DNA of 64,000 nt from the NCBI RefSeq assembly GCF_024502345.1, contig NZ_JALDNN010000001.1; one strand, written 5' to 3'. A program made the translations under genes and the position numbers. The stretch comes from Escherichia coli. Its GTDB lineage: Bacteria; Pseudomonadota; Gammaproteobacteria; Enterobacterales; Enterobacteriaceae. The notes under the pieces are model-generated. The model had not been told where the DNA came from, did no database searches, and was given only the letters and a program-made list of their open reading frames with translations. Below, one piece after another: positions 1 to 45,189 of the stretch (the first letter of the stretch is position 1; each line of letters opens with the position of its first letter).

Positions 1-92
1 AGGCCTGATAAGACGCGTCAGCGTCGCATCAGGCAACCGGCTCGGGCGTTAGATGTCGGATGCGGCGTGACCGCCTTATCCGACCTACGGGG
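1..92. repeat. REP/BIME-like palindromic units downstream of eco
   Basis: Two GC-rich imperfect palindromes of the 'gcctgatgcgacgctgacgcgtcttatcaggcct' / 'gccggatgcggcgtg..ccttatccggcctac' type typical of enterobacterial REP elements. Confidence 0.6.
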
Positions 93-111
93 TGACGCAC
101 TTCACAGCAGT

Positions 112-600
112 TTAGCGAACTACCGCGTTGTCAATTTTCTCTTCCGCCTTCCAGACGCGGTACTTCACATCTACATTGTCTGGCGTATACACCACGATCG
201 GCAGCTTGCTGTTGTAACGCAGCATTCCAGCATCGCCCAGATACGCGGTGACAAATTTCTTCTCTTTCTTGCCATCCGGGCAGGCCATCATCGTGGAAAC
301 CGGCGAGCTAACTTTATCAAAGACATAATAATCATAGCCCCAGCCTTCCAGCGTTTTGCTTTCCAGCTTCCCGCCGAGACGATGCAAATTGCAATCGACT
401 TCCAGCGTCTGACCGATTAACAGTTCTACTTTCAGGGTAGATTCATCTTCTTGCGGGGTTAACTGAATCACCTGACGCTTCATGCCTTTTTCAGCTTGTG
501 GATAAGGCGCGATTTTTTCCAGTGGCTGGACGCTCTCTGCCGCCCAGGCGGAAGTGGTGGCGAAAGCGGCAAACAATACTGCAGGTAGAATGGTCTTCAT
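112..600 (-). CDS. eco: ecotin, periplasmic serine protease inhibitor
   Basis: 162 aa ORF with signal peptide [20 protein letters not shown]; sequence recognised as ecotin. Confidence 0.95.
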
Positions 601-877
601 TTTTTGCTTTCCTTCTTCATTTATAGGTTTGCACCGATGATGTCGCTGAAGGTTAACATATTCATCAGATTTATTAATTTGCTTTATGAATAACTTAAAG
701 AATATTCAGACAATTTTACCTGCTCTTTTAGTGTTAAATTCTGATGAGAGAGCAAAACAGCAGAAATATCTCTGGTGAATTAATCGCTATATAAATATAT
801 TTATAACCATTTGAAATGTGAGCAAAAGCCCGTTTTTGCCACGCTTCCCGCCACTCTTTTGATCCTGCTACAGGTTT

Positions 878-893
878 TACCTCGATCGGGGTA
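878..893. promoter_or_regulatory. Candidate NarP/NarL 7-2-7 heptamer pair in napF control region
   Basis: tacctcg-at-cggggta inverted heptamers (TACYYMT type) about 115 bp upstream of napF start; matches recalled architecture of the napF promoter. Confidence 0.5.
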
Positions 894-1006
894 TGCATCT
901 TTGACACATCCTTTAATATCTTAGCGGCTATAAAAATGGCTTATTAATTATGCGGTTTATTTGGTCGCTCTCAATTTTCAGAGCGCGTTAATGATGGAAG
1001 GTCAAT

Positions 1007-1501
1007 GTGAAGATTGATGCATCCCGTCGGGGCATACTCACTGGTCGCTGGCGCAAAGCCAGTAACGGTATCCGTCCGCCCTGGTCCGGTGATGAATCTC
1101 ATTTTCTGACCCATTGCACCCGCTGCGACGCCTGTATTAATGCTTGTGAAAACAACATTCTGCAACGCGGCGCGGGCGGCTATCCGAGCGTTAATTTCAA
1201 AAATAACGAGTGCAGCTTCTGTTACGCCTGCGCGCAGGCTTGCCCCGAATCGCTATTTTCTCCGCGCCACACCAGGGCCTGGGATTTGCAGTTCACCATT
1301 GGGGACGCGTGCCTGGCGTATCAGTCAGTTGAATGCCGCCGCTGTCAGGATAGCTGTGAGCCAATGGCAATTATCTTTCGCCCGACGCTCTCCGGGATCT
1401 ACCAGCCGCAACTTAATAGCCAACTTTGCAACGGATGTGGAGCATGTGCAGCCAGCTGTCCGGTATCAGCCATAACTGCGGAGTATCTCCATGCACACTA
1501 A
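1007..1501 (+). CDS. napF: ferredoxin-type protein NapF (4Fe-4S clusters)
   Basis: 164 aa, multiple CxxCxxCxxxCP motifs; first gene of nap operon. Confidence 0.95.
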   Translation: MKIDASRRGILTGRWRKASNGIRPPWSGDESHFLTHCTRCDACINACENNILQRGAGGYPSVNFKNNECSFCYACAQACPESLFSPRHTRAWDLQFTIGDACLAYQSVECRRCQDSCEPMAIIFRPTLSGIYQPQLNSQLCNGCGACAASCPVSAITAEYLHAH

Positions 1502-1754
1502 CTGGCAAGTTTGCAGCCTGGTCGTGCAGGCCAAAAGCGAACGAATTTCAGACATCAGCACCCAACTGAACGCCTTTCCCGGCTGTGAAGTTGCTGTCAG
1601 CGACGCGCCGAGCGGTCAGTTGATTGTGGTGGTGGAAGCAGAAGACAGCGAAACGCTGATCCAAACCATTGAGTCAGTACGCAACGTAGAGGGCGTGCTG
1701 GCGGTGTCGCTGGTTTATCACCAGCAGGAAGAGCAAGGTGAGGAAACACCATGA
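1491..1754 (+). CDS. napD: NapA chaperone NapD
   Basis: 87 aa ORF overlapping napF stop and napA start; recognised sequence. Confidence 0.9.
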
Positions 1755-4237
1755 AACTCAGTCGTCGTAGCTTTATGAAAGCTAACGCCGTTGCGGCCGC
1801 TGCGGCGGCTGCCGGTCTCAGCGTGCCGGGCGTTGCCCGCGCCGTTGTTGGTCAGCAGGAAGCCATCAAATGGGATAAAGCGCCGTGCCGTTTCTGCGGT
1901 ACTGGTTGCGGCGTTCTGGTCGGAACGCAGCAGGGGCGTGTGGTGGCCTGTCAGGGCGACCCGGACGCACCGGTTAACCGTGGCCTGAACTGCATTAAGG
2001 GCTATTTCCTGCCCAAGATCATGTACGGTAAAGACCGTTTGACGCAGCCGCTGCTGCGTATGAAAAACGGTAAATATGACAAAGAAGGCGAATTTACCCC
2101 AATCACCTGGGATCAGGCCTTCGATGTGATGGAAGAGAAATTCAAAACCGCCCTGAAAGAAAAAGGGCCGGAATCGATCGGTATGTTCGGTTCTGGTCAG
2201 TGGACTATCTGGGAAGGTTATGCCGCGTCCAAGCTGTTTAAAGCGGGCTTCCGTTCGAACAACATCGACCCGAACGCGCGTCACTGTATGGCGTCGGCAG
2301 TAGTTGGCTTTATGCGTACCTTTGGTATGGATGAGCCGATGGGCTGCTATGACGACATCGAGCAGGCTGACGCGTTTGTGCTGTGGGGCGCAAACATGGC
2401 GGAGATGCACCCGATCCTCTGGTCACGCATCACTAACCGTCGTCTCTCTAACCAGGACGTCACCGTGGCGGTGCTTTCAACCTACCAGCATCGTAGCTTC
2501 GAGCTGGCGGATAACGGCATCATCTTTACGCCACAGTCTGACCTGGTGATCCTGAACTACATCGCCAACTATATCATTCAAAACAATGCGATAAATCAGG
2601 ACTTCTTCAGCAAACACGTTAACCTGCGCAAAGGGGCGACGGACATCGGCTACGGTTTACGTCCGACCCATCCGCTGGAAAAAGCAGCGAAGAATCCGGG
2701 TTCTGACGCCTCCGAACCGATGAGCTTTGAAGATTACAAAGCCTTCGTTGCTGAGTATACGCTGGAAAAAACCGCTGAAATGACCGGCGTGCCGAAAGAC
2801 CAGTTAGAACAACTGGCGCAGCTGTATGCCGATCCGAACAAGAAAGTCATATCCTACTGGACGATGGGCTTCAACCAGCATACCCGTGGTGTGTGGGCCA
2901 ACAACCTGGTCTACAACCTGCACCTGCTGACCGGCAAAATTTCCCAGCCGGGTTGCGGTCCGTTCTCCCTGACCGGGCAGCCTTCCGCGTGTGGTACTGC
3001 GCGTGAAGTGGGCACCTTTGCTCACCGTCTGCCTGCGGACATGGTGGTAACTAACGAGAAACATCGTGATATCTGCGAGAAGAAGTGGAATATCCCGAGC
3101 GGCACCATTCCGGCGAAAATCGGTCTGCATGCGGTAGCACAAGACCGTGCGCTGAAAGACGGCAAGCTGAATGTTTACTGGACCATGTGTACCAACAACA
3201 TGCAGGCCGGGCCGAACATCAATGAAGAGCGTATGCCGGGCTGGCGCGATCCGCGCAACTTCATCATCGTCTCCGATCCGTATCCGACAGTCAGTGCGCT
3301 GGCCGCCGACTTGATCCTGCCGACCGCAATGTGGGTAGAGAAAGAGGGCGCTTACGGTAACGCCGAACGCCGTACTCAGTTCTGGCGTCAGCAGGTACAG
3401 GCGCCAGGCGAAGCGAAATCGGATCTCTGGCAGTTAGTCCAGTTCTCCCGCCGCTTCAAAACTGAAGAAGTATGGCCGGAAGAGCTGCTGGCGAAGAAAC
3501 CGGAACTGCGTGGCAAAACGCTGTACGAAGTTCTGTATGCCACCCCCGAAGTGAGCAAATTCCCGGTATCCGAACTGGCGGAAGATCAGCTGAACGATGA
3601 ATCCCGCGAGCTGGGCTTCTATCTGCAAAAAGGGCTGTTCGAAGAGTACGCATGGTTTGGTCGCGGTCACGGTCACGATCTCGCGCCGTTCGATGACTAC
3701 CACAAAGCGCGCGGTCTGCGCTGGCCGGTGGTGAACGGTAAAGAAACGCAGTGGCGTTACAGCGAAGGTAACGACCCGTACGTGAAAGCGGGCGAAGGCT
3801 ATAAGTTCTACGGTAAACCGGATGGTAAAGCGGTGATCTTCGCGCTGCCGTTCGAACCGGCGGCGGAAGCACCGGATGAAGAGTACGACCTGTGGCTCTC
3901 TACCGGACGCGTCCTGGAGCACTGGCACACCGGCAGTATGACTCGCCGTGTGCCGGAACTGCACCGTGCCTTCCCGGAAGCGGTCCTGTTTATTCACCCG
4001 CTGGATGCGAAAGCGCGCGATCTGCGCCGTGGCGACAAAGTGAAAGTGGTTTCTCGCCGTGGCGAAGTGATCTCGATTGTCGAAACGCGCGGTCGTAACC
4101 GTCCGCCGCAGGGCCTGGTGTACATGCCGTTCTTCGACGCCGCACAGCTGGTTAACAAACTAACGCTGGACGCGACCGATCCGCTCTCGAAAGAGACGGA
4201 CTTCAAGAAGTGCGCGGTCAAACTGGAGAAGGTGTAA
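1751..4237 (+). CDS. napA: periplasmic nitrate reductase catalytic subunit NapA (Tat signal, molybdopterin)
   Basis: 828 aa; N-terminal twin-arginine motif SRRSFMKA; CxxCxxxC cluster; recognised. Confidence 0.97.
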
Positions 4238-4243
4238 GCCATT

Positions 4244-4939
4244 ATGTCCCGGTCAGCGAAACCTCAAAATGGTCGCCGCCGCTTTCTGCGCGATGTCGTT
4301 CGCACAGCAGGCGGGCTGGCTGCCGTGGGTGTGGCGCTGGGGTTACAACAGCAAACCGCACGCGCATCTGGCGTGCGGTTGCGCCCGCCCGGAGCCATAA
4401 ACGAGAACGCCTTTGCCAGTGCCTGTGTGCGTTGCGGTCAGTGTGTTCAGGCTTGCCCTTACGACACCTTAAAACTGGCGACGCTGGCCTCTGGCCTGTC
4501 GGCGGGCACGCCATATTTTGTCGCACGGGATATTCCTTGCGAAATGTGTGAGGACATTCCGTGCGCCAAAGTGTGCCCGAGCGGTGCGCTGGATCGTGAG
4601 ATTGAATCGATCGACGACGCGCGGATGGGGCTGGCGGTACTGGTGGACCAGGAAAACTGTCTCAACTTTCAGGGGCTGCGCTGCGATGTTTGTTATCGCG
4701 AATGCCCGAAAATTGATGAGGCCATCACCCTGGAGCTGGAGCGCAACACGCGTACCGGTAAGCACGCCCGCTTTCTGCCGACGGTTCACAGCGACGCCTG
4801 TACCGGTTGCGGTAAGTGCGAAAAAGTATGCGTGCTGGAACAACCGGCAATCAAGGTGTTACCGCTGTCACTGGCGAAAGGGGAGTTAGGTCACCATTAC
4901 CGCTTCGGCTGGCTGGAGGGGAACAATGGCAAATCGTAA
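4244..4939 (+). CDS. napG: ferredoxin-type protein NapG
   Basis: 231 aa, Tat-like signal (RRRFLR), four Cys clusters. Confidence 0.95.
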
Positions 4940-5789
4940 ACGTGACGCCGGGCGCGAGGCGCTGGAGAAAAAAGGCTGGTGGCGCAGTCACCGTTGGCTG
5001 GTGTTACGTCGCCTTTGTCAGTTCTTCGTGCTGGGGATGTTTTTGAGCGGTCCGTGGTTTGGTGTGTGGATCTTGCACGGCAACTACAGCAGTAGCCTGT
5101 TATTCGACACCGTTCCGCTGACCGATCCGCTGATGACGCTGCAAAGTCTTGCCAGTGGTCATCTGCCTGCCACGGTGGCGTTGACCGGTGCGGTGATTAT
5201 CACCGTGCTCTACGCCCTGGCAGGAAAGCGATTATTTTGCAGCTGGGTCTGCCCGCTGAACCCGATTACCGACTTAGCGAACTGGTTACGCAGGCGCTTT
5301 GACCTCAATCAGTCTGCGACGATCCCTCGCCACATTCGCTACGTGCTGTTGGTGGTCATTCTGGTGGGATCTGCCTTAACTGGCACGCTCATCTGGGAAT
5401 GGATCAACCCCGTTTCCCTGATGGGGCGTAGCCTGGTAATGGGCTTCGGCAGCGGCGCGCTGCTTATTCTCGCGCTGTTTTTATTTGATCTACTGGTCGT
5501 TGAACACGGCTGGTGCGGGCACATTTGTCCGGTTGGCGCGCTGTATGGCGTGCTGGGTAGCAAAGGTGTGATTACCGTTGCGGCCAGCGATCGGCAGAAA
5601 TGTAACCGCTGTATGGATTGTTTTCATGTTTGCCCGGAACCGCATGTGCTACGTGCCCCGGTGCTGGATGAACAAAGCCCGGTGCAGGTCACCAGCCGCG
5701 ATTGCATGACGTGCGGTCGCTGCGTGGATGTCTGTTCTGAGGATGTATTTACAATAACTACACGATGGAGTTCGGGAGCGAAATCATGA
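4926..5789 (+). CDS. napH: membrane ferredoxin-type protein NapH
   Basis: 287 aa, TM helices plus C-terminal Cys clusters. Confidence 0.95.
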
Positions 5790-6229
5790 AAAGCCATGAC
5801 CTGAAGAAAGCGCTGTGTCAATGGACGGCGATGCTGGCCCTGGTGGTAAGCGGCGCGGTTTGGGCGGCTAATGGCGTCGATTTTAGCCAGTCGCCGGAAG
5901 TATCCGGGACGCAGGAAGGGGCCATTCGGATGCCAAAAGAGCAGGATCGGATGCCGCTGAACTATGTGAATCAGCCGCCAATGATCCCGCATAGCGTTGA
6001 AGGTTATCAGGTAACGACCAATACCAACCGCTGCTTGCAGTGCCACGGTGTCGAAAGCTATCGCACCACTGGCGCGCCGCGTATCAGTCCTACTCACTTT
6101 ATGGACAGCGACGGCAAAGTGGGCGCGGAAGTGGCTCCGCGTCGTTATTTCTGTCTGCAATGTCACGTACCGCAGGCCGATACCGCGCCAATCGTGGGGA
6201 ATACCTTTACCCCATCAAATACCGAATGA
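5786..6229 (+). CDS. napB: dihaem cytochrome c NapB, with C-terminus altered by a novel joint
   Basis: [13 protein letters not shown]...; two CxxCH haem motifs; the last residues (..TPSNTE) differ from the recalled K-12 C-terminus (..TPSKGYGK). Confidence 0.9.
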   Translation: MKSHDLKKALCQWTAMLALVVSGAVWAANGVDFSQSPEVSGTQEGAIRMPKEQDRMPLNYVNQPPMIPHSVEGYQVTTNTNRCLQCHGVESYRTTGAPRISPTHFMDSDGKVGAEVAPRRYFCLQCHVPQADTAPIVGNTFTPSNTE

Positions 6230-6671
6230 AGTGGACTATCGAAAATTGCAGGAACTGTTCACGCGGATCGCCATCGATAAACATATTCAGCAAAAGCTTG
6301 AACATCCTCACCACCAGCTGGTGGCTACCTACCAGTCATTAAACCGCAAGTATTCAGAATTGCTGGAGGAATACAAAATCCTTCGGCGCTGCTTCTCTGT
6401 TTCCGCTCTTGTTCCTTATACCGACGTATGGACACATAAGCCTGTTCAGTTTTATCCAGGCAAACATCCATGCGAAAAACCTGCCGACATGCTGAAACAG
6501 ATCATTAGCGCCAGCAGCAGACCGGGGGATATCGTTGCCGATTTCTTTATGGGCTCTGGTTCAACTGTGAAAGCTGCAATAGAACTTGGCCGTCGGGCGA
6601 TCGGCGTAGAACTGGAGGCAGACAGGTTTATACAGACCACCGAAGAGGTGGAAAAACTGAAAAAATCATAA
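6220..6671 (+). pseudogene. 5'-truncated N6-adenine/N4-cytosine DNA methyltransferase (C-terminal fragment only)
   Basis: Translation contains HPCEKP then DIVADFFMGSGSTVKAAIELGRRAIGVE (SAM-binding FxGxG block of beta-class MTases); no start codon and no N-terminal DPPY catalytic motif; reading frame begins at the napB joint. Confidence 0.7.
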
Positions 6672-6816
6672 CGATCACCACGCTCCCCCGTTGCTGTGGT
6701 GATCACCATCTTCAGGCACCGGGAATCATCCTTAATTTTTACTTGAACATAAGAGCCCGGTTGCCTGATCCCCTTCAATCACACACAGCGCCATCCGAAC
6801 TATCGGAGGTGAGGCT

Positions 6817-7095
6817 ATGACCAGAATGAGCACCATTTACAGCAGACTTTCATATGGATCAGGAACCACGCTTGCCGGCTGCGGTGTATCAGCGAAGGCA
6901 TATGCCGAAACAGCTAAAACAGCAAAAGAGGTGTCCTGGATGTTGGCCGACAGAATTGCAGGGTTAAGCCTGAGTGACTGGGCAATTATTGTCGGTATCG
7001 CATGCACAGTTATCACCTGTGCAGTGAACTGGTATTACAGGAAAAAGGAAAGGGAGGACCGGCTTAATGGCAATGTCACCAAAGCAGAAGAATAA
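6817..7095 (+). CDS. phage holin
   Basis: 92 aa, hydrophobic helix WAIIVGIACTVITCAVNWYY, charged C-terminus, immediately upstream of endolysin. Confidence 0.7.
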   Translation: MTRMSTIYSRLSYGSGTTLAGCGVSAKAYAETAKTAKEVSWMLADRIAGLSLSDWAIIVGIACTVITCAVNWYYRKKEREDRLNGNVTKAEE

Positions 7096-7615
7096 ACTGA
7101 GCGCAGCGGTCGTTGGGTTAATTCTTGCCGGGGCTTCCGCACCCGTGATTCTCGATCAGTTTCTGGATGAGAAAGAGGGTAACAGCACAACAGCGTACAA
7201 GGACGGCTCTGGTATATGGACCATTTGTCGTGGCGCTACGATGGTTGATGGCAAGCCAGTAGTTCAGGGCATGAAGCTGTCTGCTGAGAAATGTTCCAAG
7301 GTGAACGCCATAGAACGCGACAAGGCGCTGGCGTGGGTCGAGCGAAACATCAAGGTGCCACTGACCGAACCACAGAAAGCCGGGATCGCGTCTTTCTGCC
7401 CATATAACATCGGTCCCGGAAAATGTTTCCCATCTACGTTCTATAAGCGAATAAATGCTGGCGACCGTGAAGGTGCCTGTGAAGCGATCCGCTGGTGGAT
7501 AAAAGACGGTGGTCGCGATTGTCGTCTGACCAAAGGGCAGAAGAACGGTTGCTATGGTCAGGTTGAACGGCGAGACCAGGAAAGCGCGTTGACGTGCTGG
7601 GGGATAGACCAGTGA
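7067..7615 (+). CDS. phage endolysin, lysozyme family with N-terminal signal-anchor (SAR-type)
   Basis: 182 aa; N-terminal hydrophobic [18 protein letters not shown] followed by lysozyme-like body; position between holin and Rz. Confidence 0.8.
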
Positions 7616-8127
7616 GCCTGCGCTATCAGTTCATTGTTATTTTGTTGCTGGTGGCCGTTGCATTCTTCGCGGGTAGTGTATGGAGCAGCCGCGGTTGGGA
7701 AAAGAAGTGGGCCGAGCGTGACAGCGTAGAATCATCGCAAACAGCGAACGCACAGACCGCCGCTCGCATGATTGAACAAGGGCGTATTATTGCCCGTGAT
7801 GAGGCTGTAAAAGATGCACAAGCACAAGCCGCTAAATCCGCTGCCACTGCTGCTGGCCTGTCTGCCACTGTTAACCAGCTGCGTACCGAAGCAACAAAGC
7901 TTGCCACTCGCCTGGACGCCGCAAAGCACACCGCAGATCTTGCCACTGCCGTCAGAAGCAAAACAGCCGGAGCCGACGCCGCAGTGCTCGCCGACATGCT
8001 CGGACGCCTTGCAGAAGAAGCTCGATATTATGCTGAGCGATCTGACGAAAGCTACCGGGCAGGAATGACGTGTGAGCGCATTTACGACTCAGTGAGGCAG
8101 TCAAACAACAACAGGGTTAGAAGATGA
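7594..8127 (+). CDS. i-spanin (Rz-like); true start may be GTG at 7612
   Basis: N-terminal TM ([15 protein letters not shown]), coiled-coil Ala/Gln-rich periplasmic domain; Rz1 nested in +1 frame. Confidence 0.8.
7814..8068 (+). CDS. o-spanin (Rz1-like lipoprotein) nested inside Rz
   Basis: Signal peptide with lipobox LLTSC, proline-rich mature region; entirely embedded in Rz in another frame. Confidence 0.75.
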
Positions 8128-8354
8128 ACGCAGAAAACCTAAGTGAAGCGTATTACCTCAATAACGATATAAAAGAACTACAACTTCAGAAAAGCATACT
8201 GGAAAGTGGTGCCGGACTTGGTGTGACAATCCAGTCTACCTATCAGGATAACGCCTTTCTTGATGCCATACGCCCGCATGCAGTGGCTGAACTTGATCGC
8301 CGTATTGTGGAGAAGAAAAAAAACCTCTCCACTCTGGGTGTTACATTCTCTTAA
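8124..8354 (+). CDS. hypothetical protein, start overlaps Rz stop (ATGA)
   Basis: 76 aa ORF translationally coupled to Rz; no recognisable motif. Confidence 0.45.
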
Positions 8355-8701
8355 ATGAGAACAACAATAAAAGGTTATGTCTGCTTTGCCACATTCTGAG
8401 AGTATGAGTTTTATTTGGTAGTCAATCAGTTACTTTATTGGTTTGCTTTCCGATGGAAGATAGATGTTTCCACAGAAGGGGCAAATTAACGTTATATTGT
8501 TTTTTATTCTCGACAGACTGTGCTTTGACTGGCGGGAGCAATGAGGACAAGTACTTTTCACATGGCGTAAAGTACGCATCTTGATATCTTTGAGTATCGA
8601 CATGTTGATTGTCCTGGTGGGCGGTTAACAACCATACACCACATGTTGGCTAATAGCTTCTTTTATAACCGTTACGATGTAGTCGTTAGCCATAATCAAT
8701 C

Positions 8702-8727
8702 AAGCCTCGCAATAGCGGGGCTTTTTA
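8702..8727 (+). terminator. possible hairpin plus T-run
   Basis: agcctcgc-aata-gcggggct followed by ttttt. Confidence 0.35.
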
Positions 8728-8738
8728 ACAACTGAGGA

Positions 8739-8942
8739 ATGAGCATTACAGTAGTTCTTACAGCTAAGCAGATTGAAGACCTGGCTGCCTTCGCAAAAGA
8801 AGATGGCCAGCCACAATATACCATCACTACCGGAACAATCCCTGAGTTCGAAGCGGATGATGGCGAGGTTATCCCTGAGTACACCGGGCTGATTGCCTAT
8901 TCCGAGTCGCTAGAGCATAGCGTTCTACAGCTCGATAACTAA
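8739..8942 (+). CDS. hypothetical small acidic protein
   Basis: 67 aa, Asp/Glu-rich, SD-like gaggaa upstream; a degenerate copy of its 3' end recurs at 10.8-10.96 kb. Confidence 0.5.
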   Translation: MSITVVLTAKQIEDLAAFAKEDGQPQYTITTGTIPEFEADDGEVIPEYTGLIAYSESLEHSVLQLDN

Positions 8943-8969
8943 CGAATCAACATAACTTTCCATCCGCCA

Positions 8970-9135
8970 TGACACCACAATGCTCGTAGACATGCCAGGA
9001 AGCCTGGCAGAAGAAGCTCGATACCATGCTGAACGCGCTGATGAAAACTACCGAGCAGGAATGACATGTGAGCGGATTTATGAGTCCGTAAAAATACTAA
9101 CAATGAACCGTAGAGGAAAAATAATAGCTCTATAA
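8970..9135 (+). pseudogene. duplicated 3' fragment of the Rz gene
   Basis: 9006-9092 is an imperfect direct repeat of 8011-8097 (gcagaagaagctcgata..gcaggaatgac.tgtgagcg..attta); would encode ..[27 protein letters not shown].. Confidence 0.7.
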
Positions 9136-9514
9136 ATTAAGATGTTGACGGTTTTCGTGGATAAATTTGTGAATTTTTACTATGAAGGAAATACGACTCT
9201 TCCTTGAGTCAAAATCCCTGACAACTTAGGGTGATAGATAAAGGTCTTACGCAGCATGACATAATTTTCGATTTAAGCTATTTAAATTAATTTTTAAGAT
9301 CAAAACCCACTGAGATTTACTTACAAAACTAAACCTTGCTATGTCTGGTTAATCATGCGTTAATGAATGTCTGGTTTGTAACGAATTTATCTGAAGCAGT
9401 CGCTGTAATAATTTTATTCCTTGTTCCTGTTGAGATTTCCTTGTTAGCTTTTCTCTCTGATAAATTTTTTTCGGACCATTCTGCCCAAGGGCTTACTCAA
9501 TAAAGGTAATGTTT

Positions 9515-9727
9515 ATGTCTAATAAAATGACTGGTTTAGTTAAATGGTTTAATCCTGAAAAAGGTTTTGGTTTTATCACTCCAAAAGATGGTAGTAAAGA
9601 TGTGTTTGTTCACTTCTCTGCTATCCAGAGTAATGATTTCAAGACGTTGAATGAGAATCAGGAAGTTGAATTTAGTGTTGAACAGGGACCTAAAGGCCCC
9701 ACGGCAGTTAATGTCGTGGCTGTATAA
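9515..9727 (+). CDS. cold-shock protein (CspA family), prophage-borne
   Basis: 70 aa [23 protein letters not shown]...; long AT-rich 5' leader typical of csp genes. Confidence 0.9.
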
Positions 9728-9931
9728 GGTAACTGTTATTACTAATAATATTCACTTCAGATGTCCGTGTTGCCACGGATCTCAGTACCGAACGTCAAAC
9801 TTTGATGTTACTGAAAAAAATCCTTTCGGAGCAAAATGTATTTTTTGCAAATCAACAATGATTACATTTGATAATATTGCACTGTACATTCGTTCTGGTC
9901 AGTCTTCGTTAGAATTCAGAAAATAAATTTC

Positions 9932-9955
9932 AGGCTCCTTATGGAGCCTTTTTTG
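9932..9955 (+). terminator. rho-independent terminator
   Basis: aggctcc-ttat-ggagcct followed by tttttt. Confidence 0.7.
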
Positions 9956-9999
9956 TATGCTGAACCGACAATCTCTGTAAGAGACATCACGGTAAAATT

Positions 10000-10230
10000 A
10001 TGAAAAAAGTCATCGTTTTTTTTAATGCAGAACCAGCAGTTGTTGTAACCGTAATGAAAGGTATTACTACGATAATGCGTGAGTTTCCCAATGGGGAAAA
10101 AGCACACCTACCCGTGATGTCAGCGGGATTTCCATCTCTGACAGGAGACCATAAAATAGTTTATGTAGCCTCTGATCGTGATGTCAGTTCAGAAGAGATC
10201 CTCGAGGCAGCCTCGAAGCTTTTGAAATGA
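10000..10230 (+). CDS. hypothetical protein
   Basis: 76 aa ORF; weak RBS; no recognisable motif. Confidence 0.35.
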   Translation: MKKVIVFFNAEPAVVVTVMKGITTIMREFPNGEKAHLPVMSAGFPSLTGDHKIVYVASDRDVSSEEILEAASKLLK

Positions 10231-10434
10231 GATCTGGTTGTTTCGTGACCGACCCGGATTTTAGTACAGTGGTTTGTGTGGTCGCGAGCTCTTTTGCATG
10301 AAGATTGTACTGCAAACTATTGATAATTGAGTCTTTCTATTCTATCTTTTAAACATATCAGCGCTTATACAAGTGCTCTACGGGGAATGTAACATGCCTG
10401 GCGTTGATACGTTAGAGATCAAGAGAGGTAAACA

Positions 10435-10608
10435 ATGAACGTCGAAGATTTAAAAAGAAAAACTGAAGCGGATATTTCTGAATTCATCACAAAAAAAATT
10501 ATTGAACTCAAAAAAAAGACAGGAAAAGAAGTTTCCGATATCCAGTTTAATGCTCGTGAAAAAATGACTGGGCTTGAAAGCTATGATATTAAAATCACAT
10601 TAATCTAA
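10435..10608 (+). CDS. GnsA/GnsB-family small protein
   Basis: 57 aa MNVEDLKRKTEADISEFITKKIIELKKKTGKEVSDIQFNAREKMTGLESYDIKITLI; strong similarity to recalled GnsA/GnsB; below the 60-aa cutoff of the ORF track. Confidence 0.8.
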   Translation: MNVEDLKRKTEADISEFITKKIIELKKKTGKEVSDIQFNAREKMTGLESYDIKITLI

Positions 10609-10632
10609 TTGTTATAAGACTCAGTTCGAGTG

Positions 10633-10667
10633 AAAAAGCATTATCTTGAAAGGTAATGCTTTTTTAT
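10633..10667 (+). terminator. rho-independent terminator after gns-like gene
   Basis: aaagcatta-tcttgaaagg-taatgcttt followed by tttatttc. Confidence 0.7.
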
Positions 10668-10760
10668 TTCTGTCATAAAATTTAGAACGTTGTCAAAGCC
10701 TTCACTTCTAACCACAGATTTTCTGCTTACCTTTTAACGGGTCCTCCTTGACGATTCTGA

Positions 10761-10964
10761 CCATCGAGGGGCAGCAGCGGCGCGGGATTTGGAGCATTTT
10801 TGATTCTTCACGCAACCATTTCAGCATTTGATGCTGATGACGGAACACTATCCCCGAATACACTGGGTTTGTTGCATTCTCTGATTCAAAAGAACACGGT
10901 GTGCTTCAACTTGGCTGAGCAGGCATTACAGCAGACATTCACTGAGTGCCTGCGACAAAGTTAA
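10761..10964 (+). pseudogene. start-less 3' remnant related to the 8739-8942 gene
   Basis: Frame encodes ..FDADDGTLSPNTLGLL.. resembling ..FEADDGEVIPEYTGLI.. of the 8739 ORF; no in-frame start codon after the upstream stop. Confidence 0.45.
10921..10958 (+). repeat. ~35-bp boundary repeat, copy 1
   Basis: cattacagcagacattcactgagtgcctgcgacaa; near-identical copy at 11311-11343. Confidence 0.6.
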
Positions 10965-11049
10965 ATGGCATCAAGCATGCGATGATGATTGATTAATAAT
11001 TGAGCTATGCATGGTATAATAAGCCCCATTCATTGAAAGGTTAACCACC

Positions 11050-11214
11050 ATGTCATTTTTCGATTATGCAATGCAGCGTGTTGGGCTTGCAGCCAATACG
11101 ACTGTCATGTGCCCGATATGCGGACATAAATCCACACACTCGACCACGAAAGTACGCCAACAACAGGCGTTACTTTGCCCTAAATGTAAATCGCTGTTTG
11201 TCATTCACAGATAA
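11050..11214 (+). CDS. small zinc-ribbon protein (CxxC...CxxC)
   Basis: 54 aa MSFFDYAMQRVGLAANTTVMCPICGH...LCPKCKSLFVIHR; upstream -10 tataat at ~11015; two terminators downstream. Confidence 0.6.
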   Translation: MSFFDYAMQRVGLAANTTVMCPICGHKSTHSTTKVRQQQALLCPKCKSLFVIHR

Positions 11215-11232
11215 CATGCGACCTGCTGAATA

Positions 11233-11257
11233 TAACCGCCTACGGGCGGTTTTTTAT
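11233..11257 (+). terminator. rho-independent terminator
   Basis: accgcctacgggcggt followed by tttttt. Confidence 0.75.
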
Positions 11258-11268
11258 TGCCATCACAA

Positions 11269-11293
11269 AGGCCACTTTCGAGTGGCTTTTTTA
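11269..11293 (+). terminator. second rho-independent terminator
   Basis: gccactttcgagtggc followed by ttttttaa. Confidence 0.65.
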
Positions 11294-11310
11294 ATGGTCA
11301 TCACGACGGG

Positions 11311-11343
11311 TATTACAGCAGGAATTACTGAGTGCCTGCGATA
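11311..11343 (+). repeat. ~35-bp boundary repeat, copy 2
   Basis: tattacagcaggaattactgagtgcctgcgataat; matches 10921-10958. Confidence 0.6.
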
Positions 11344-11370
11344 ATGCTCAATATTTTTATCGGAGTGAAT

Positions 11371-11559
11371 ATGCCACCGCGCACACCGAAGGCCGGCCTG
11401 AAAGGGGCGATACAAAAAAGGGAAAAAATGAAAAGACATAAGCGAAATAAAAAAGCCACCACATCTGCAAATGTGATGGCTGGCATTCGGATTAATTCAG
11501 GTTGGCTGAATAAGTTAGCCGCAGATATTACTAAAATAATTAATGAAGCATGTCCCTAA
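11371..11559 (+). CDS. hypothetical small basic protein
   Basis: 62 aa from ATG with ggag SD; Lys/Arg-rich; no known motif. Confidence 0.3.
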   Translation: MPPRTPKAGLKGAIQKREKMKRHKRNKKATTSANVMAGIRINSGWLNKLAADITKIINEACP

Positions 11560-35201: not shown

Positions 35202-35278
35202 TGGTCGGCACGAGAGGATTTGAACCTCCGACCCCCGACACCCCATGACGGTGCGCTACCAGGCTGCGCTACGTGCCG
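35202..35278 (-). tRNA. proL: tRNA-Pro
   Basis: 77 nt; reverse complement reads CGGCACGTAGCGCAGCCTGGTAGCGCACCGTCATGGGGTGTCGGGGGTCGGAGGTTCAAATCCTCTCGTGCCGACCA. Confidence 0.95.
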
Positions 35279-43599: not shown

Positions 43600-45189
43600 T
43601 CAGCTCAACGCCAGTAGCTGACGCGTATACTCCTGCTGCGGTGTGGCAAACACGCGCGCGCACGGTCCTTGTTCCACTACTTCCCCTTGTCGCAGTACGA
43701 TAACCTGATGACATAACGCGCGGACAACGTGCAAATCGTGGCTGATAAACAAATAGGCCAGTTGATGCTTTTGTTGCAATGATTTCAATAGCGTCAATAT
43801 TTGCGCCTGTACCGTTTTGTCGAGTGATGATGTCGGTTCATCAAGTATGATCAGCGAGGGCTTAAGAATTAATGCCCTGGCAATCGCAATACGTTGTCGC
43901 TGACCACCAGAGAACTCCGCCGGATAACGGTGGCGTGTTTCAGGATCTAATCCCACTTCATGCATCACGGCTATCACTTGTTGTTCGCGTTGTGCGGCAG
44001 AAAGCGTCGGCTGGTGAACCCGTAAGCCTTCCTCAATAATCTGCAAAACGTTGAGTCGTGGGTTGAGCGAGGAGTTTGGATCCTGAAATACCACCTGAAT
44101 GCGATGACGAATAGGTAACAGCTGGCGGCGATTTAAATTTTGCAGTGGCTGACCGTCAAAGATGATGCTGCCCTGAGAATTAATCAGTCGCAGCAGCGCC
44201 AGTCCCGTCGTACTTTTCCCGGAACCGGACTCGCCCACTAAACCCAGTGTTTCACCCGCTCGTAGCGTAAAACTGATGTTTTTCACCACCACATTATGAT
44301 CCACAATGCGCTTCAAAATCCCTTTGCGAATGGGGAAGGCAACCTGAAGCTGTTCAACATCCAGCAACGTTGAGGCAGGTTCTGGCAACGGCACTGGATC
44401 GCCTGACGATTCACTGTTGAGTAGCTTTTGTGTGTAAGGATGAGTGGGTGAGGCAAATAGCGTAGCGGCGTAATTTTGCTCGACACAGCGACCGTTTTGC
44501 ATTACCGCCACGCGGTGGGCCAGTTTTCTGACAATGCTGAGGTTATGAGTAATAAACAGCATGCCCATATTCAGCTCGCCTTGCAGTTCGCGCAACAGCT
44601 GTAAAATCTGCGCCTGGACAGAGACGTCCAGTGCGGTGGTCGGTTCATCGGCAATTAATAATTCCGGTCGCGTTAACAGCGCCATCGCAATCATCACCCG
44701 CTGGCGTTCGCCGCCGGAGAGCTGATGCGGATAATCTGTCAGCCGTTTTGCCGCCTGGCGGATACCAACGCGATCAAGGCAGTTAAGAATTTCGCCACGA
44801 GCCGCTTCCCGACGCATCCCGCGGTGGAGTGAAAGCACTTCATAAAGCTGTTTTTCCAGGGTATGCAATGGATTTAACGACACCATCGGCTCCTGAAAAA
44901 TCATGGCGATCTTATTACCACGTACGCCGCGCAACGTTTGATCGCTGGCATGAAGCAGCGATTCGCCATGAAAACGAATATCGCCGGAGAGATATTCAAC
45001 CGGCGGGGAAGGGAGCAGGCGTAAAATTGACAGCGCGGTAACGCTTTTGCCTGAACCAGACTCACCCACCAGCGCCAGCGTTTCGCCAGCCTCAATCTGT
45101 AGTGAAACATCATTTACTACTGTACGTACGGTTTGCTGATGGCGAAAACCCACCGACAAATCTTCAATCGCTAACAGAGTTTGCGTCAT
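43600..45189 (-). CDS. yejF: microcin C/peptide ABC transporter ATP-binding protein (duplicated ATPase)
   Basis: 529 aa from [11 protein letters not shown]; two Walker A motifs (GESGSGKS). Confidence 0.95.

Follow-up and report, generated by a model that had tools for sequence, protein, structure and literature searches.

Introduction

The model of Hendrix, Juhala and Hatfull describes gene fragments at novel joints in mosaic lambdoid genomes and accessory genes termed 'morons', i.e., variably present genes of lower G+C content inserted between essential late genes. Two known arrangements come closest to the locus described here. In phage N15 (genes 52–56) and in the prophage of Escherichia coli Nissle 1917, a methyltransferase, a holin, a lysozyme and Rz (DUF2514) are followed directly by a terminator stem-loop and a gp56-type gene. 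In the Qin-type cryptic prophages of E. coli, rzpQ is a complete DUF2514 gene located directly after the lysozyme gene, and it is followed by cspI, ynfQ/ymcF, ynfN and gnsB.

The locus lies in a window of 64,000 nucleotides from E. coli (contig NZ_JALDNN010000001.1 of assembly GCF_024502345.1), the whole stretch of DNA that was analysed. The left part of the locus has the N15/Nissle gene order and is 91% identical to the Nissle 1917 prophage from a methylase fragment through Rz. Unlike N15 and Nissle, the window has two genes, orf76 and a ynfU-family gene, before the hairpin, and it lacks the sequence normally present 3' of gp56-type genes. The right part resembles Qin in gene order and in spacing from the 3' end of Rz, with positions 9189–10609 being 75–81% identical; Qin also has a ynfU gene. 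Between the two parts lies a second Rz 3' end. Whereas Qin rzpQ is complete, the window keeps only the last third or so of this gene, split from the lysis cassette by orf76, ynfU and orf67. The fragment is 69% identical to the 3' end of Qin rzpQ, and N15/Nissle-type Rz is closer to it (83%). The second Rz end is very probably the inert remnant of an Rz gene from another phage, stranded where two mosaic segments meet. A literature search found no publication describing this joint.

Results

The lysis genes and the direct repeat

The intact lysis genes and the two copies of the Rz 3' end are as follows.

7594–8127, + strand: intact Rz (i-spanin, DUF2514); Pfam PF10721 full length, E 4.8e-49; PHROG 312 'Rz-like spanin', E 3.6e-56
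7814–8068, + strand: embedded Rz1 (o-spanin) in the +1 frame of Rz, from the ORF list; lipoprotein-type signal ending LLTSC
7975–8093, + strand: repeat copy 1, which forms the 3' end of functional Rz and overlaps that of Rz1; repeat search, alignment and self-BLAST
8971–9135, + strand: Rz' relic (copy 2), the probable 3' third of a second Rz allele; homology 8971–9089, residual ORF 8980–9135 (51 aa)

The intact Rz is 82–91% identical to Rz of the Nissle 1917 prophage; with its start placed at 7612 instead, it has the length of 171 aa annotated in related loci. The Rz1 lipobox was read from the sequence, and the Rz1 stop codon (8066–8068) falls within repeat copy 1. The preliminary description had reported an imperfect direct repeat of the Rz 3' end at 8011–8097 and 9006–9092. 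The repeat itself was confirmed by a self-BLAST E value of 1.5e-28 (4.6-kb query); its extent needed correction, as the 5' end reaches about 30 nt further and the offset is 996 rather than 995. Repeat search and alignment gave a gapless pair of 119 nt (7975–8093 and 8971–9089) with 97 of 119 positions identical (81.5%) and a longest perfect run of 17 nt. Identity to Rz drops to the random level directly 5' of 8971, where the upstream DNA is the end of orf67. The claim that copy 2 has no Rz body before it was thus borne out.

The residual ORF matches Pfam DUF2514 (PF10721) at positions 124–160 of 161 (E 1.5e-9, 38.6 bits, cut-off 26) and also PHROG 312. The transmembrane domain and the coiled-coil body are absent, and the ORF list and alignment revealed nothing Rz-like upstream of 8971. 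Because the N-terminal anchor and the periplasmic body are missing, the ORF is a fragment and not a DUF2514 member gene. Its Rz1 frame is broken by a TAG at 8986–8988, and the lipoprotein N-terminus is missing.

The two copies differ mainly at synonymous sites (dS 0.72, dN 0.117, dN/dS 0.16), suggesting that they diverged as working genes in different phages. Functional Rz alleles compared over the identical 120 nt gave dN/dS values of 0.14–0.55, a range that includes the value of the copy pair. Additionally, copy 2 is equally near to copy 1, to the Nissle Rz and to the Rz of Citrobacter MGH106 (82–83% each). A search of 5,426 complete E. coli genomes and 50,697 phage records found no full-length Rz close to the relic, the best match being 83%, and a word-limited search of a 5.8-billion-protein collection returned only truncated forms of 51–81 aa. 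Since no near-identical full-length donor was found, the existence of a donor Rz is inferred from these comparisons.

Small genes between the copies

The interval between the copies contains three small genes and a hairpin.

8124–8354, + strand: orf76, a conserved small phage gene; phrog_5415, E 3e-35, full length
8430–8603, − strand: YnfU-family zinc-ribbon gene, 57 aa; PF23499 E 8.4e-15, 54.9 bits against a cut-off of 27; NF038384 76.4 bits against a cut-off of 36
8702–8728, + strand: terminator-like hairpin; 9-bp stem, AAUA loop, U5; −15.1 kcal/mol, z −2.7
8739–8942, + strand: orf67, acidic small protein of the N15 gp56/mEp390 gp53 family; last codon and stop altered at the joint

The 76-aa ORF had been described as coupled to the Rz stop codon, and its ATG indeed overlaps that stop in an ATGA at 8124–8127. 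Its family comprises 327 protein clusters, all labelled 'hypothetical'. AlphaFold2 predicts a two-helix hairpin (helices 3–28 and 39–70; pLDDT 81.8), and no PDB match was obtained. The minus-strand YnfU-family gene, which the preliminary description had missed, encodes a protein with two CxxC motifs in its translation, CPHC and CPFC.

Sequence comparison assigns orf67 to the family of N15 gp56. It matches phrog_9518 (E 4.4e-38, residues 3–66 against profile positions 2–65 of 66) and is 51% identical to N15 gp56 (tblastn E 5e-12) and 89% identical to mEp390 gp53. Of the 67 residues of the product, 13 are Asp or Glu and only 2 are Lys or Arg (pI 4.05). The earlier view of a very acidic ORF with a Shine-Dalgarno sequence holds for the charge and for the presence of the motif, GAGGA at 8734–8738; the start is less clean than implied, as the motif abuts the ATG at 8739. 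The annotated start of the homologues is an ATG two codons downstream with good Shine-Dalgarno spacing, and this codon is ATT in the present allele.

The hairpin precedes orf67 in every context examined and is 94–100% conserved in other genera. It directly follows Rz in seven other loci, whereas orf76 and ynfU intervene in the window. The equivalent stem-loop of N15 is annotated as a putative rho-independent terminator. As orf67 begins 11 nt after the hairpin, with no room for a promoter of its own, its position points to expression on the late transcript. A promoter and terminator scan of 7900–9600 gave background levels. Sub-threshold Rfam hits at 8627–8730 (isrJ and Phe leader, E about 0.5) were dismissed.

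Both small plus-strand genes are under strong purifying selection, with dN/dS values of 0.02–0.09 for orf67 and 0.10 for orf76 (against E. coli MEI4O1-23). Lack of conservation had been named beforehand as evidence against the preliminary reading of these ORFs; the values found indicate real conserved genes, probably encoding late-expressed accessory proteins. The suggestion that orf67 is a DNA mimic or anti-defence factor is consistent with its strong negative charge. No relation of orf67 to a known mimic or anti-defence protein was seen: sequence searches of Pfam, NCBIfam, PADLOC and PDB gave no match, and fold comparison gave nothing significant. For orf76 and orf67 alike, no fold or family match speaks for or against an anti-defence role, and the PADLOC scan of the small proteins returned nothing meaningful. 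Late expression would be atypical timing for anti-restriction proteins. HMMER hits of orf67 to giant SprB-repeat proteins were attributed to score accumulation over repeats, not homology, and longer proteins with the orf67 domain carried no Pfam domains in their extensions. Being very acidic, strongly constrained and without a known fold relative, orf67 is a reasonable target for functional screens.

The interval had been interpreted as a cargo cassette. The genes are accessory cargo, variably present among related prophages, but they do not form a single cassette, since the three occur separately or in other combinations. Rz is followed by orf76 only in E. coli MEI4O1-23; by the hairpin and orf67 in Nissle, Citrobacter amalonaticus, Citrobacter gillenii, Mixta, mEp390 and N15; by ynfU2 and orf67 in Citrobacter MGH106; and by cspI in Qin-type prophages. 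This presence and absence in different prophages agrees with the moron model, as does the base composition. The G+C content is 0.43 at 8124–8970 and 0.38 at 9136–11300, and the accessory range of 0.38–0.44 compares with values of 0.53 for the lysis genes and 0.54 for the structural genes. As for expression signals, the csp gene has its own cspA-type 5' UTR and orf76 is coupled to Rz.

The joint and the downstream module

The joint and the segments downstream of it comprise the following features.

8943–8970, + strand: joint filler, 28 nt between the orf67 stop and the Rz homology; unchanged in all block carriers
9370–9786, + strand: cspA-type thermoregulator 5' UTR and cspI-like gene (CDS 9515–9727); Rfam RF01766 142.8 bits, gathering score 78, E 5.8e-38; Pfam CSD E 9e-33
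9738–10608, + strand: ymcF-like (9738–9926), ynfN-like (10000–10230) and gnsB-like (10435–10608) genes; collinear BLAST to the Qin-type prophages L004 and L005
10811–10958, + strand: second scar, a 3' relic of another orf67 allele with its stem-loop; 71–83% BLAST matches to the orf67 3' half and downstream hairpin of 10 loci

All other orf67 loci end in ...CTCGACGACTAG followed by a conserved stem-loop. In the window, orf67 ends in ...CTCGATAACTAA, followed by unrelated sequence and by Rz homology from 8971. The filler matches neither Rz nor the sequence downstream of orf67 in other loci. A deletion running from CTCGA of orf67 to CGATAA at the 3' end of the stem-loop was considered as the origin of the joint. 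It found no support, since 8945–8970 does not resemble the sequence downstream of the element elsewhere.

From 9189 onward the window is 77–79% identical to the Qin cspI region. The Pfam labels YmcF-like and GnsAB_toxin sit on identical genes in two other loci (L006 and L014). In L004 and L005, cspI begins about 364 nt after rzpQ. Their homology to the window spans the relic (8979–9086) and is picked up again at 9189, which lies 49 nt beyond the rzpQ stop; the offset changes by only 26 nt. Copy 2 is therefore in the same register with the csp module as rzpQ with cspI, which indicates that the relic belongs to the downstream module and not to the 0.9-kb insert. Further downstream lie the orf67 3' relic and an HNH 5' relic at about 11371–11393, indicating that this interval accumulates such joints.

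A conserved stem-loop after small accessory genes

A 40-nt stem-loop lies 0–9 nt after small accessory genes in many enterobacterial temperate phages, including orf67 and orf76 elsewhere. It has the form GGCATTACAG-[variable stem and loop]-YGATAATGC, with an invariant outer helix and internal loop and a covarying inner stem. The element is a selected sense-strand structure found in an extreme combinatorial range of contexts. None of the inspected phage records annotates it, Rfam has no entry for it, and a search of the accessible literature did not find it. Both ends of the stretch between the Rz copies lack it. It seems rather unlikely that the spanin-terminase interval is a cassette array, with the stem-loop as a dedicated joint for exchange or processing, instead of a place where DNA collects at random. 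If this were true, phages would have a new system for shuffling or expressing genes; the stem-loop could be recognised as a folded strand, much like attC sites or the intercistronic RNase III sites of T7, and the Rz' relic would mark a rare joint outside the stem-loop. A functional stem-loop would explain the shuffling or expression of small genes here.

Distribution of the composite block

The arrangement is not private to this prophage but a fixed block common to many, mostly Citrobacter, prophages, in which it is near-identical and has different flanks. Every carrier examined has the same joint and relic, and window positions 7975–10965 or beyond are 98–100% identical. The carriers differ in holin (93% identical), lysozyme (89–93% identical), early genes and terminase types. 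The carrier loci were collected through exactly matching proteins, which makes the block look more uniform than it is. Records with the exact protein numbered 215 collection blocks for the relic ORF, 936 for orf67 and 3,898 for the csp protein. The block was absent from 5,426 complete E. coli genomes. A search for an uninterrupted Rz-csp parent with the exact csp protein retrieved only the same composite block and a chromosomal remnant (L046) with homology from 9281.

Among carriers, the relic has accumulated two to three times the substitutions of neighbouring segments. In diverged carriers, the odds of substitution in the relic were 2.5–7 times those in the adjoining 847 nt (Fisher p 0.049, 0.016 and 0.006; 4–9 differences per comparison), and the changes mostly alter the amino acid. 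Variants of start and frame exist (e.g., P0001 and P0002). The relic thus appears to be in neutral decay and without function.

Discussion

The preliminary description attributed the second Rz end to an insertion at the Rz 3' end. In such an event, a cargo cassette would have inserted there and duplicated about 120 bp of target, so that both copies derive from one resident Rz. The direct-repeat geometry with cargo between the copies fits this idea. However, the flanking repeats are not the near-identical pair of a target-site duplication or an integron-type cassette: they have diverged by 18% with a dN/dS of 0.16, while the rest of the block differs by 0–5% among carriers, and unrelated Rz alleles are as close to copy 2 as copy 1 is. 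Carriers do swap copy 1 alleles (copy 1 of locus L018 differs at 22 of 119 positions), and a later replacement of the copy that first paired with copy 2 is conceivable in principle. Yet the cargo consists of three separately mobile genes, copy 2 has the same position relative to the csp module as its counterpart in Qin, and neither the ORF list nor Pfam revealed a recombinase or transposase gene in 6800–9800. Duplication in place is consequently very unlikely. An assembly or chimera artefact falsely joining two prophages is conceivable in view of the E. coli host flanks around a block typical of Citrobacter and absent from complete E. coli genomes. The identical joint nevertheless recurs in many independent assemblies, including the complete chromosomes CP022273.1, CP057824.1 and LR134485.1 and metagenome contigs, making an artefact almost certainly wrong.

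The relic might also be kept for a function, either as a spanin-modulating Rz C-terminal peptide or as a homology patch for swapping or deleting the 1-kb cargo. Most carriers retain an ATG and an uninterrupted frame of 51 aa that, judged by sequence, may be translated, and the exact ORF is widespread. Recombination between the direct repeats would delete orf76, ynfU and orf67 and rebuild one chimeric Rz; the 17-nt longest perfect match, however, is a poor substrate for RecA. Rz meets Rz1 in the periplasm, and a relic product without a transmembrane segment or signal peptide could not reach this compartment. No Shine-Dalgarno sequence precedes 8980, and the raised, mostly amino-acid-altering substitution and the start and frame variants also argue against maintenance. 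A retained function is accordingly highly improbable. The lack of start signals and of a membrane anchor, together with the broken Rz1 frame, indicates that the relic probably does nothing.

A mosaic joint between two phages is therefore the preferred reading. One parent would have carried an N15/Nissle-type lysis cassette (methylase, holin, lysozyme and Rz/Rz1) with the small late genes orf76, ynfU-family and orf67. The other would have carried an Rz followed by a cold-shock-type cluster of cspI-, ymcF-, ynfN- and gnsB-like genes, as in E. coli Qin. We infer an illegitimate (non-homologous) crossover from the very end of orf67 into about codon 127 of the second parent's Rz. This event would have placed one set of accessory genes behind the other and spared only the final third of the second Rz, which may have survived because the lysis-terminase interval tolerates extra DNA. 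The composite block would then have spread as a unit among mostly Citrobacter lambdoid prophages through recombination in the flanks, and one such prophage, itself truncated, now sits in this E. coli chromosome. As in the mosaic-joint model, a partial gene lies at a sharp ancestry boundary; unlike a joint private to one genome, it is widely spread as a fixed block.

The relic itself is of little weight, being an ordinary scar of phage mosaic evolution. For annotators it is a warning, as many Citrobacter genomes list a 'DUF2514 family protein' of 51 aa that is only part of a gene. The composite block would show clearly, and in a case that can be dated, that temperate phages first add accessory genes one behind the other through illegitimate recombination and later pass on the combined segment by homologous exchange.

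Prophage setting

The window opens with the E. coli nap operon (1-6229), for which several E. coli genomes give 100% identity. At about 6216-6230, the 3' end of napB is joined to a phage DNA-methylase gene (6216-6671) midway along its length; a phage late region comes next, and the prophage ends at tRNA-Pro(GGG). The element is therefore a prophage at tRNA-Pro(GGG) whose left arm is missing, and the deletion must have taken out napC and everything in the prophage up to the methylase fusion point.

Features of the prophage in the window
6817-7095, holin
7067-7615, lysozyme
7594-8127, Rz (i-spanin, DUF2514)
7814-8068, Rz1 (o-spanin) frame, embedded in Rz
Between Rz and terminase, small-gene interval of ~5 kb
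8124-8354, orf76, its ATG overlapping the Rz stop
8430-8603, minus strand, YnfU-family zinc-ribbon gene, overlooked in the earlier sequence-only reading
8702-8728, terminator-like hairpin
8739-8942, orf67, with 13 acidic and 2 basic residues
From 13400, terminase, then structural genes
35202-35278, tRNA-Pro(GGG), prophage end, adjoining yejM

Origin of the second Rz copy

The preliminary description reported a direct repeat of the Rz 3' end with no Rz body before the second copy, and both observations hold. Copy 1 (7975-8093) and copy 2 (8971-9089) align ungapped over 119 nt at an offset of 996, with 97 identical positions (self-BLAST E 1.5e-28). Directly 5' of 8971 the identity drops to random level, so no Rz body lies ahead of copy 2. 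The relic containing copy 2 (8971-9135) has a 51-aa ORF (8980-9135) whose hit to Pfam DUF2514 passes the curated cut-off and covers the final 37 profile positions.

Copy 2 had also been described as a duplicate, and this part did not survive. Read in the Rz frame, copy 1 and copy 2 are separated by 13 synonymous and 10 non-synonymous changes (dS 0.72, dN 0.117, dN/dS 0.16), and working Rz alleles of different phages show the same substitution pattern over the same 120 nt. Copy 2 is about equally distant from copy 1 (82% identity) and from the Rz of Nissle 1917 (83%) and Citrobacter MGH106 (82%), as one allele is from others; together with the dS and dN/dS values, this speaks strongly against duplication of the Rz 3' end in situ. 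No nearer Rz match to copy 2 was found in 5,426 complete E. coli genomes or 50,697 phage records, and proteins retrieved from a large collection included only truncated forms of 51-81 aa.

Copy 2 instead belongs to the downstream module. It is followed by a cspA-type 5' UTR and a cspI-like gene (Rfam RF01766, 142.8 bits), and then by ymcF-, ynfN- and gnsB-like genes, the identical order that E. coli Qin-type prophages have after rzpQ, their Rz gene. Homology to Qin-type loci spans the relic (8979-9086, aligned with the 3' end of rzpQ) and restarts at 9189, 49 nt past the rzpQ stop, with a shift of only 26 nt. By this continuity, the relic is what naturally adjoins the csp module on the left, truncated at about codon 127.

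The other side of the joint is marked by orf67. In all other prophages compared, it ends in ...CTCGACGACTAG with a conserved stem-loop directly 3', whereas in the window it ends in ...CTCGATAACTAA, followed by 28 unassigned nt and then Rz homology. The altered end and changed flank place the breakpoint in the last two codons of orf67, whose length was kept and whose usual 3' flank was lost. The repeat thus probably reflects a mosaic joint at which two accessory-gene sets were stacked, with part of a second Rz allele left there as a dead fragment.

The relic also appears, on limited data, to be decaying. In three somewhat diverged carriers of the composite block, it has 4-9 differences per 119-165 nt against 3-20 in the adjoining 847 nt (odds ratios 2.5-7; Fisher p 0.049, 0.016 and 0.006). 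Its protein variants include I to N, A to D and P to S changes and altered N-termini, its Rz1 frame is interrupted by a stop codon, and no Shine-Dalgarno sequence precedes 8980. Rz acts in the periplasm, and a fragment without a membrane anchor could not get there.

Within the csp module, the 3' end of the ymcF-like gene overlaps a sub-threshold Rfam match to the Salmonella sRNA STnc220 at 9884-9960 (43.2 bits against a gathering threshold of 60, E 2e-5). Just 3' of the gnsB-like gene, an A/T-flanked palindrome (10627-10669; AAAAAGCATTA...TAATGCTTTTTT) looks like a bidirectional terminator and has a GCATTA/TAATGC outer helix in common with the stem-loop family described below.

Genes between the copies

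The 76-aa ORF coupled to the Rz stop and the very acidic 67-aa ORF were correctly described, but the single ~0.9 kb cargo cassette proposed to carry them was not borne out, because orf76, ynfU and orf67 occur in other combinations in other prophages. E. coli MEI4O1-23 has Rz-orf76; Nissle 1917, mEp390, N15 and several Citrobacter and Mixta genomes have Rz, hairpin and orf67; and Citrobacter MGH106 has Rz, a second ynfU type, hairpin and orf67. Judged by gene order, the intervening DNA consists of separate units. Conservation of the small ORFs was also upheld: dN/dS is 0.02-0.09 for orf67 (at dS >= 0.8) and 0.10 for orf76, and both are therefore real genes, with full-length matches to phrog_9518 and phrog_5415, respectively. 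AlphaFold2 models orf67 as a helix packed on a small sheet (pLDDT 81) and orf76 as a two-helix hairpin (pLDDT 82). Neither gave a significant PDB match by fold or sequence, or one in Pfam, NCBIfam or PADLOC; the anti-defence role suggested earlier for orf67 had its charge as sole basis.

The position of orf67 directly after the terminator-like hairpin suggests late, antitermination-dependent expression. The hairpin is 94-100% conserved across genera, against only 80-87% identity for orf67 DNA; its counterpart in simpler prophages lies a few nt past the Rz stop, and the N15 record labels the equivalent stem-loop a putative terminator. Most orf67 homologues start at an ATG 6-7 nt past GAGGA. In the window allele (8739-8747) and identical copies elsewhere, this codon is ATT, the sole remaining ATG abuts the Shine-Dalgarno sequence, and some annotations of identical DNA give a 65-aa product, which implies initiation at ATT; this allele may thus be weakly translated.

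Distribution of the block and further scars

Exact matches to the 51-aa relic ORF, orf67 and the csp protein were found in 215, 936 and 3,898 collection blocks, respectively. Protein source names are mostly Citrobacter. Across the loci examined, identity is 98-100% over window 7975-10965 or beyond, while the same loci differ in early genes, holin (93%), lysozyme (89-93%) and even the type of terminase. The joint therefore had a single origin, after which it was passed as a unit between different prophages. The composite block is absent from the 5,426 complete E. coli genomes. The accessory block 7975-11200 is typical of Citrobacter prophages and the host flanks are E. coli at 100% identity; the prophage was likely acquired across genera.

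The small-gene interval holds two other relics. One, with its own stem-loop, is the 3' half of a second orf67 allele (10811-10958); the other, at ~11371-11393, consists of the first ~8 codons of an HNH endonuclease gene that is complete in two comparison loci (L003, L028). Joint-borne gene fragments are evidently common in this interval.

A conserved 40-nt stem-loop

The stem-loop has the form GGCATTACAG-[covarying stem and loop]-YGATAATGC. In enterobacterial temperate phages, it directly follows the stop codons of numerous, mutually unrelated small genes located past the lysis genes. It is the usual 3' neighbour of orf67 and also follows orf76 in MEI4O1-23.

Copies of the stem-loop
10912-10971 and 11299-11357, two strong copies in the window
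11260-11298, weak third copy in the window
4027-4066 in L001, 3862-3901 in L002 and 6253-7275 in L111 (comparison loci)
44298-44337 in phi80 (NC_021190.1)

The exact core occurs in at least 120 IMG/VR contigs; among the 120 listed, it is surrounded by 47 upstream and 66 downstream sequence kinds, and an ORF stop lies <=30 nt upstream in 93. Arrays hold 2-4 copies at ~310-340 nt spacing. Across 51 variants, pairing holds in 95.6% of cells, and double changes are seen at 8 of 16 pairs. Covariation is strong, with a score of 0.315 compared with 0.155 for shuffles and 0.03-0.08 for slid partners. Of the 51 sequences, 43 have a U-G pair, favouring the sense strand as the one that folds. In phi80, where it lies 4 nt past rha, and in Klebsiella prophages, the 40-mer is 100% identical; identity is 97.5% in Pectobacterium ZF40, and 37 of 40 nt match in mEp390. 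Otherwise unrelated phages carry it in identical form. It is without annotation in the phi80, mEp390, Klebsiella prophage and ZF40 records, has no Rfam match, and was not found in the searchable literature.

The Rz repeat is genuine and its explanation ordinary; the parts worth a further look are this stem-loop and orf67, the N15 gp56-family protein.
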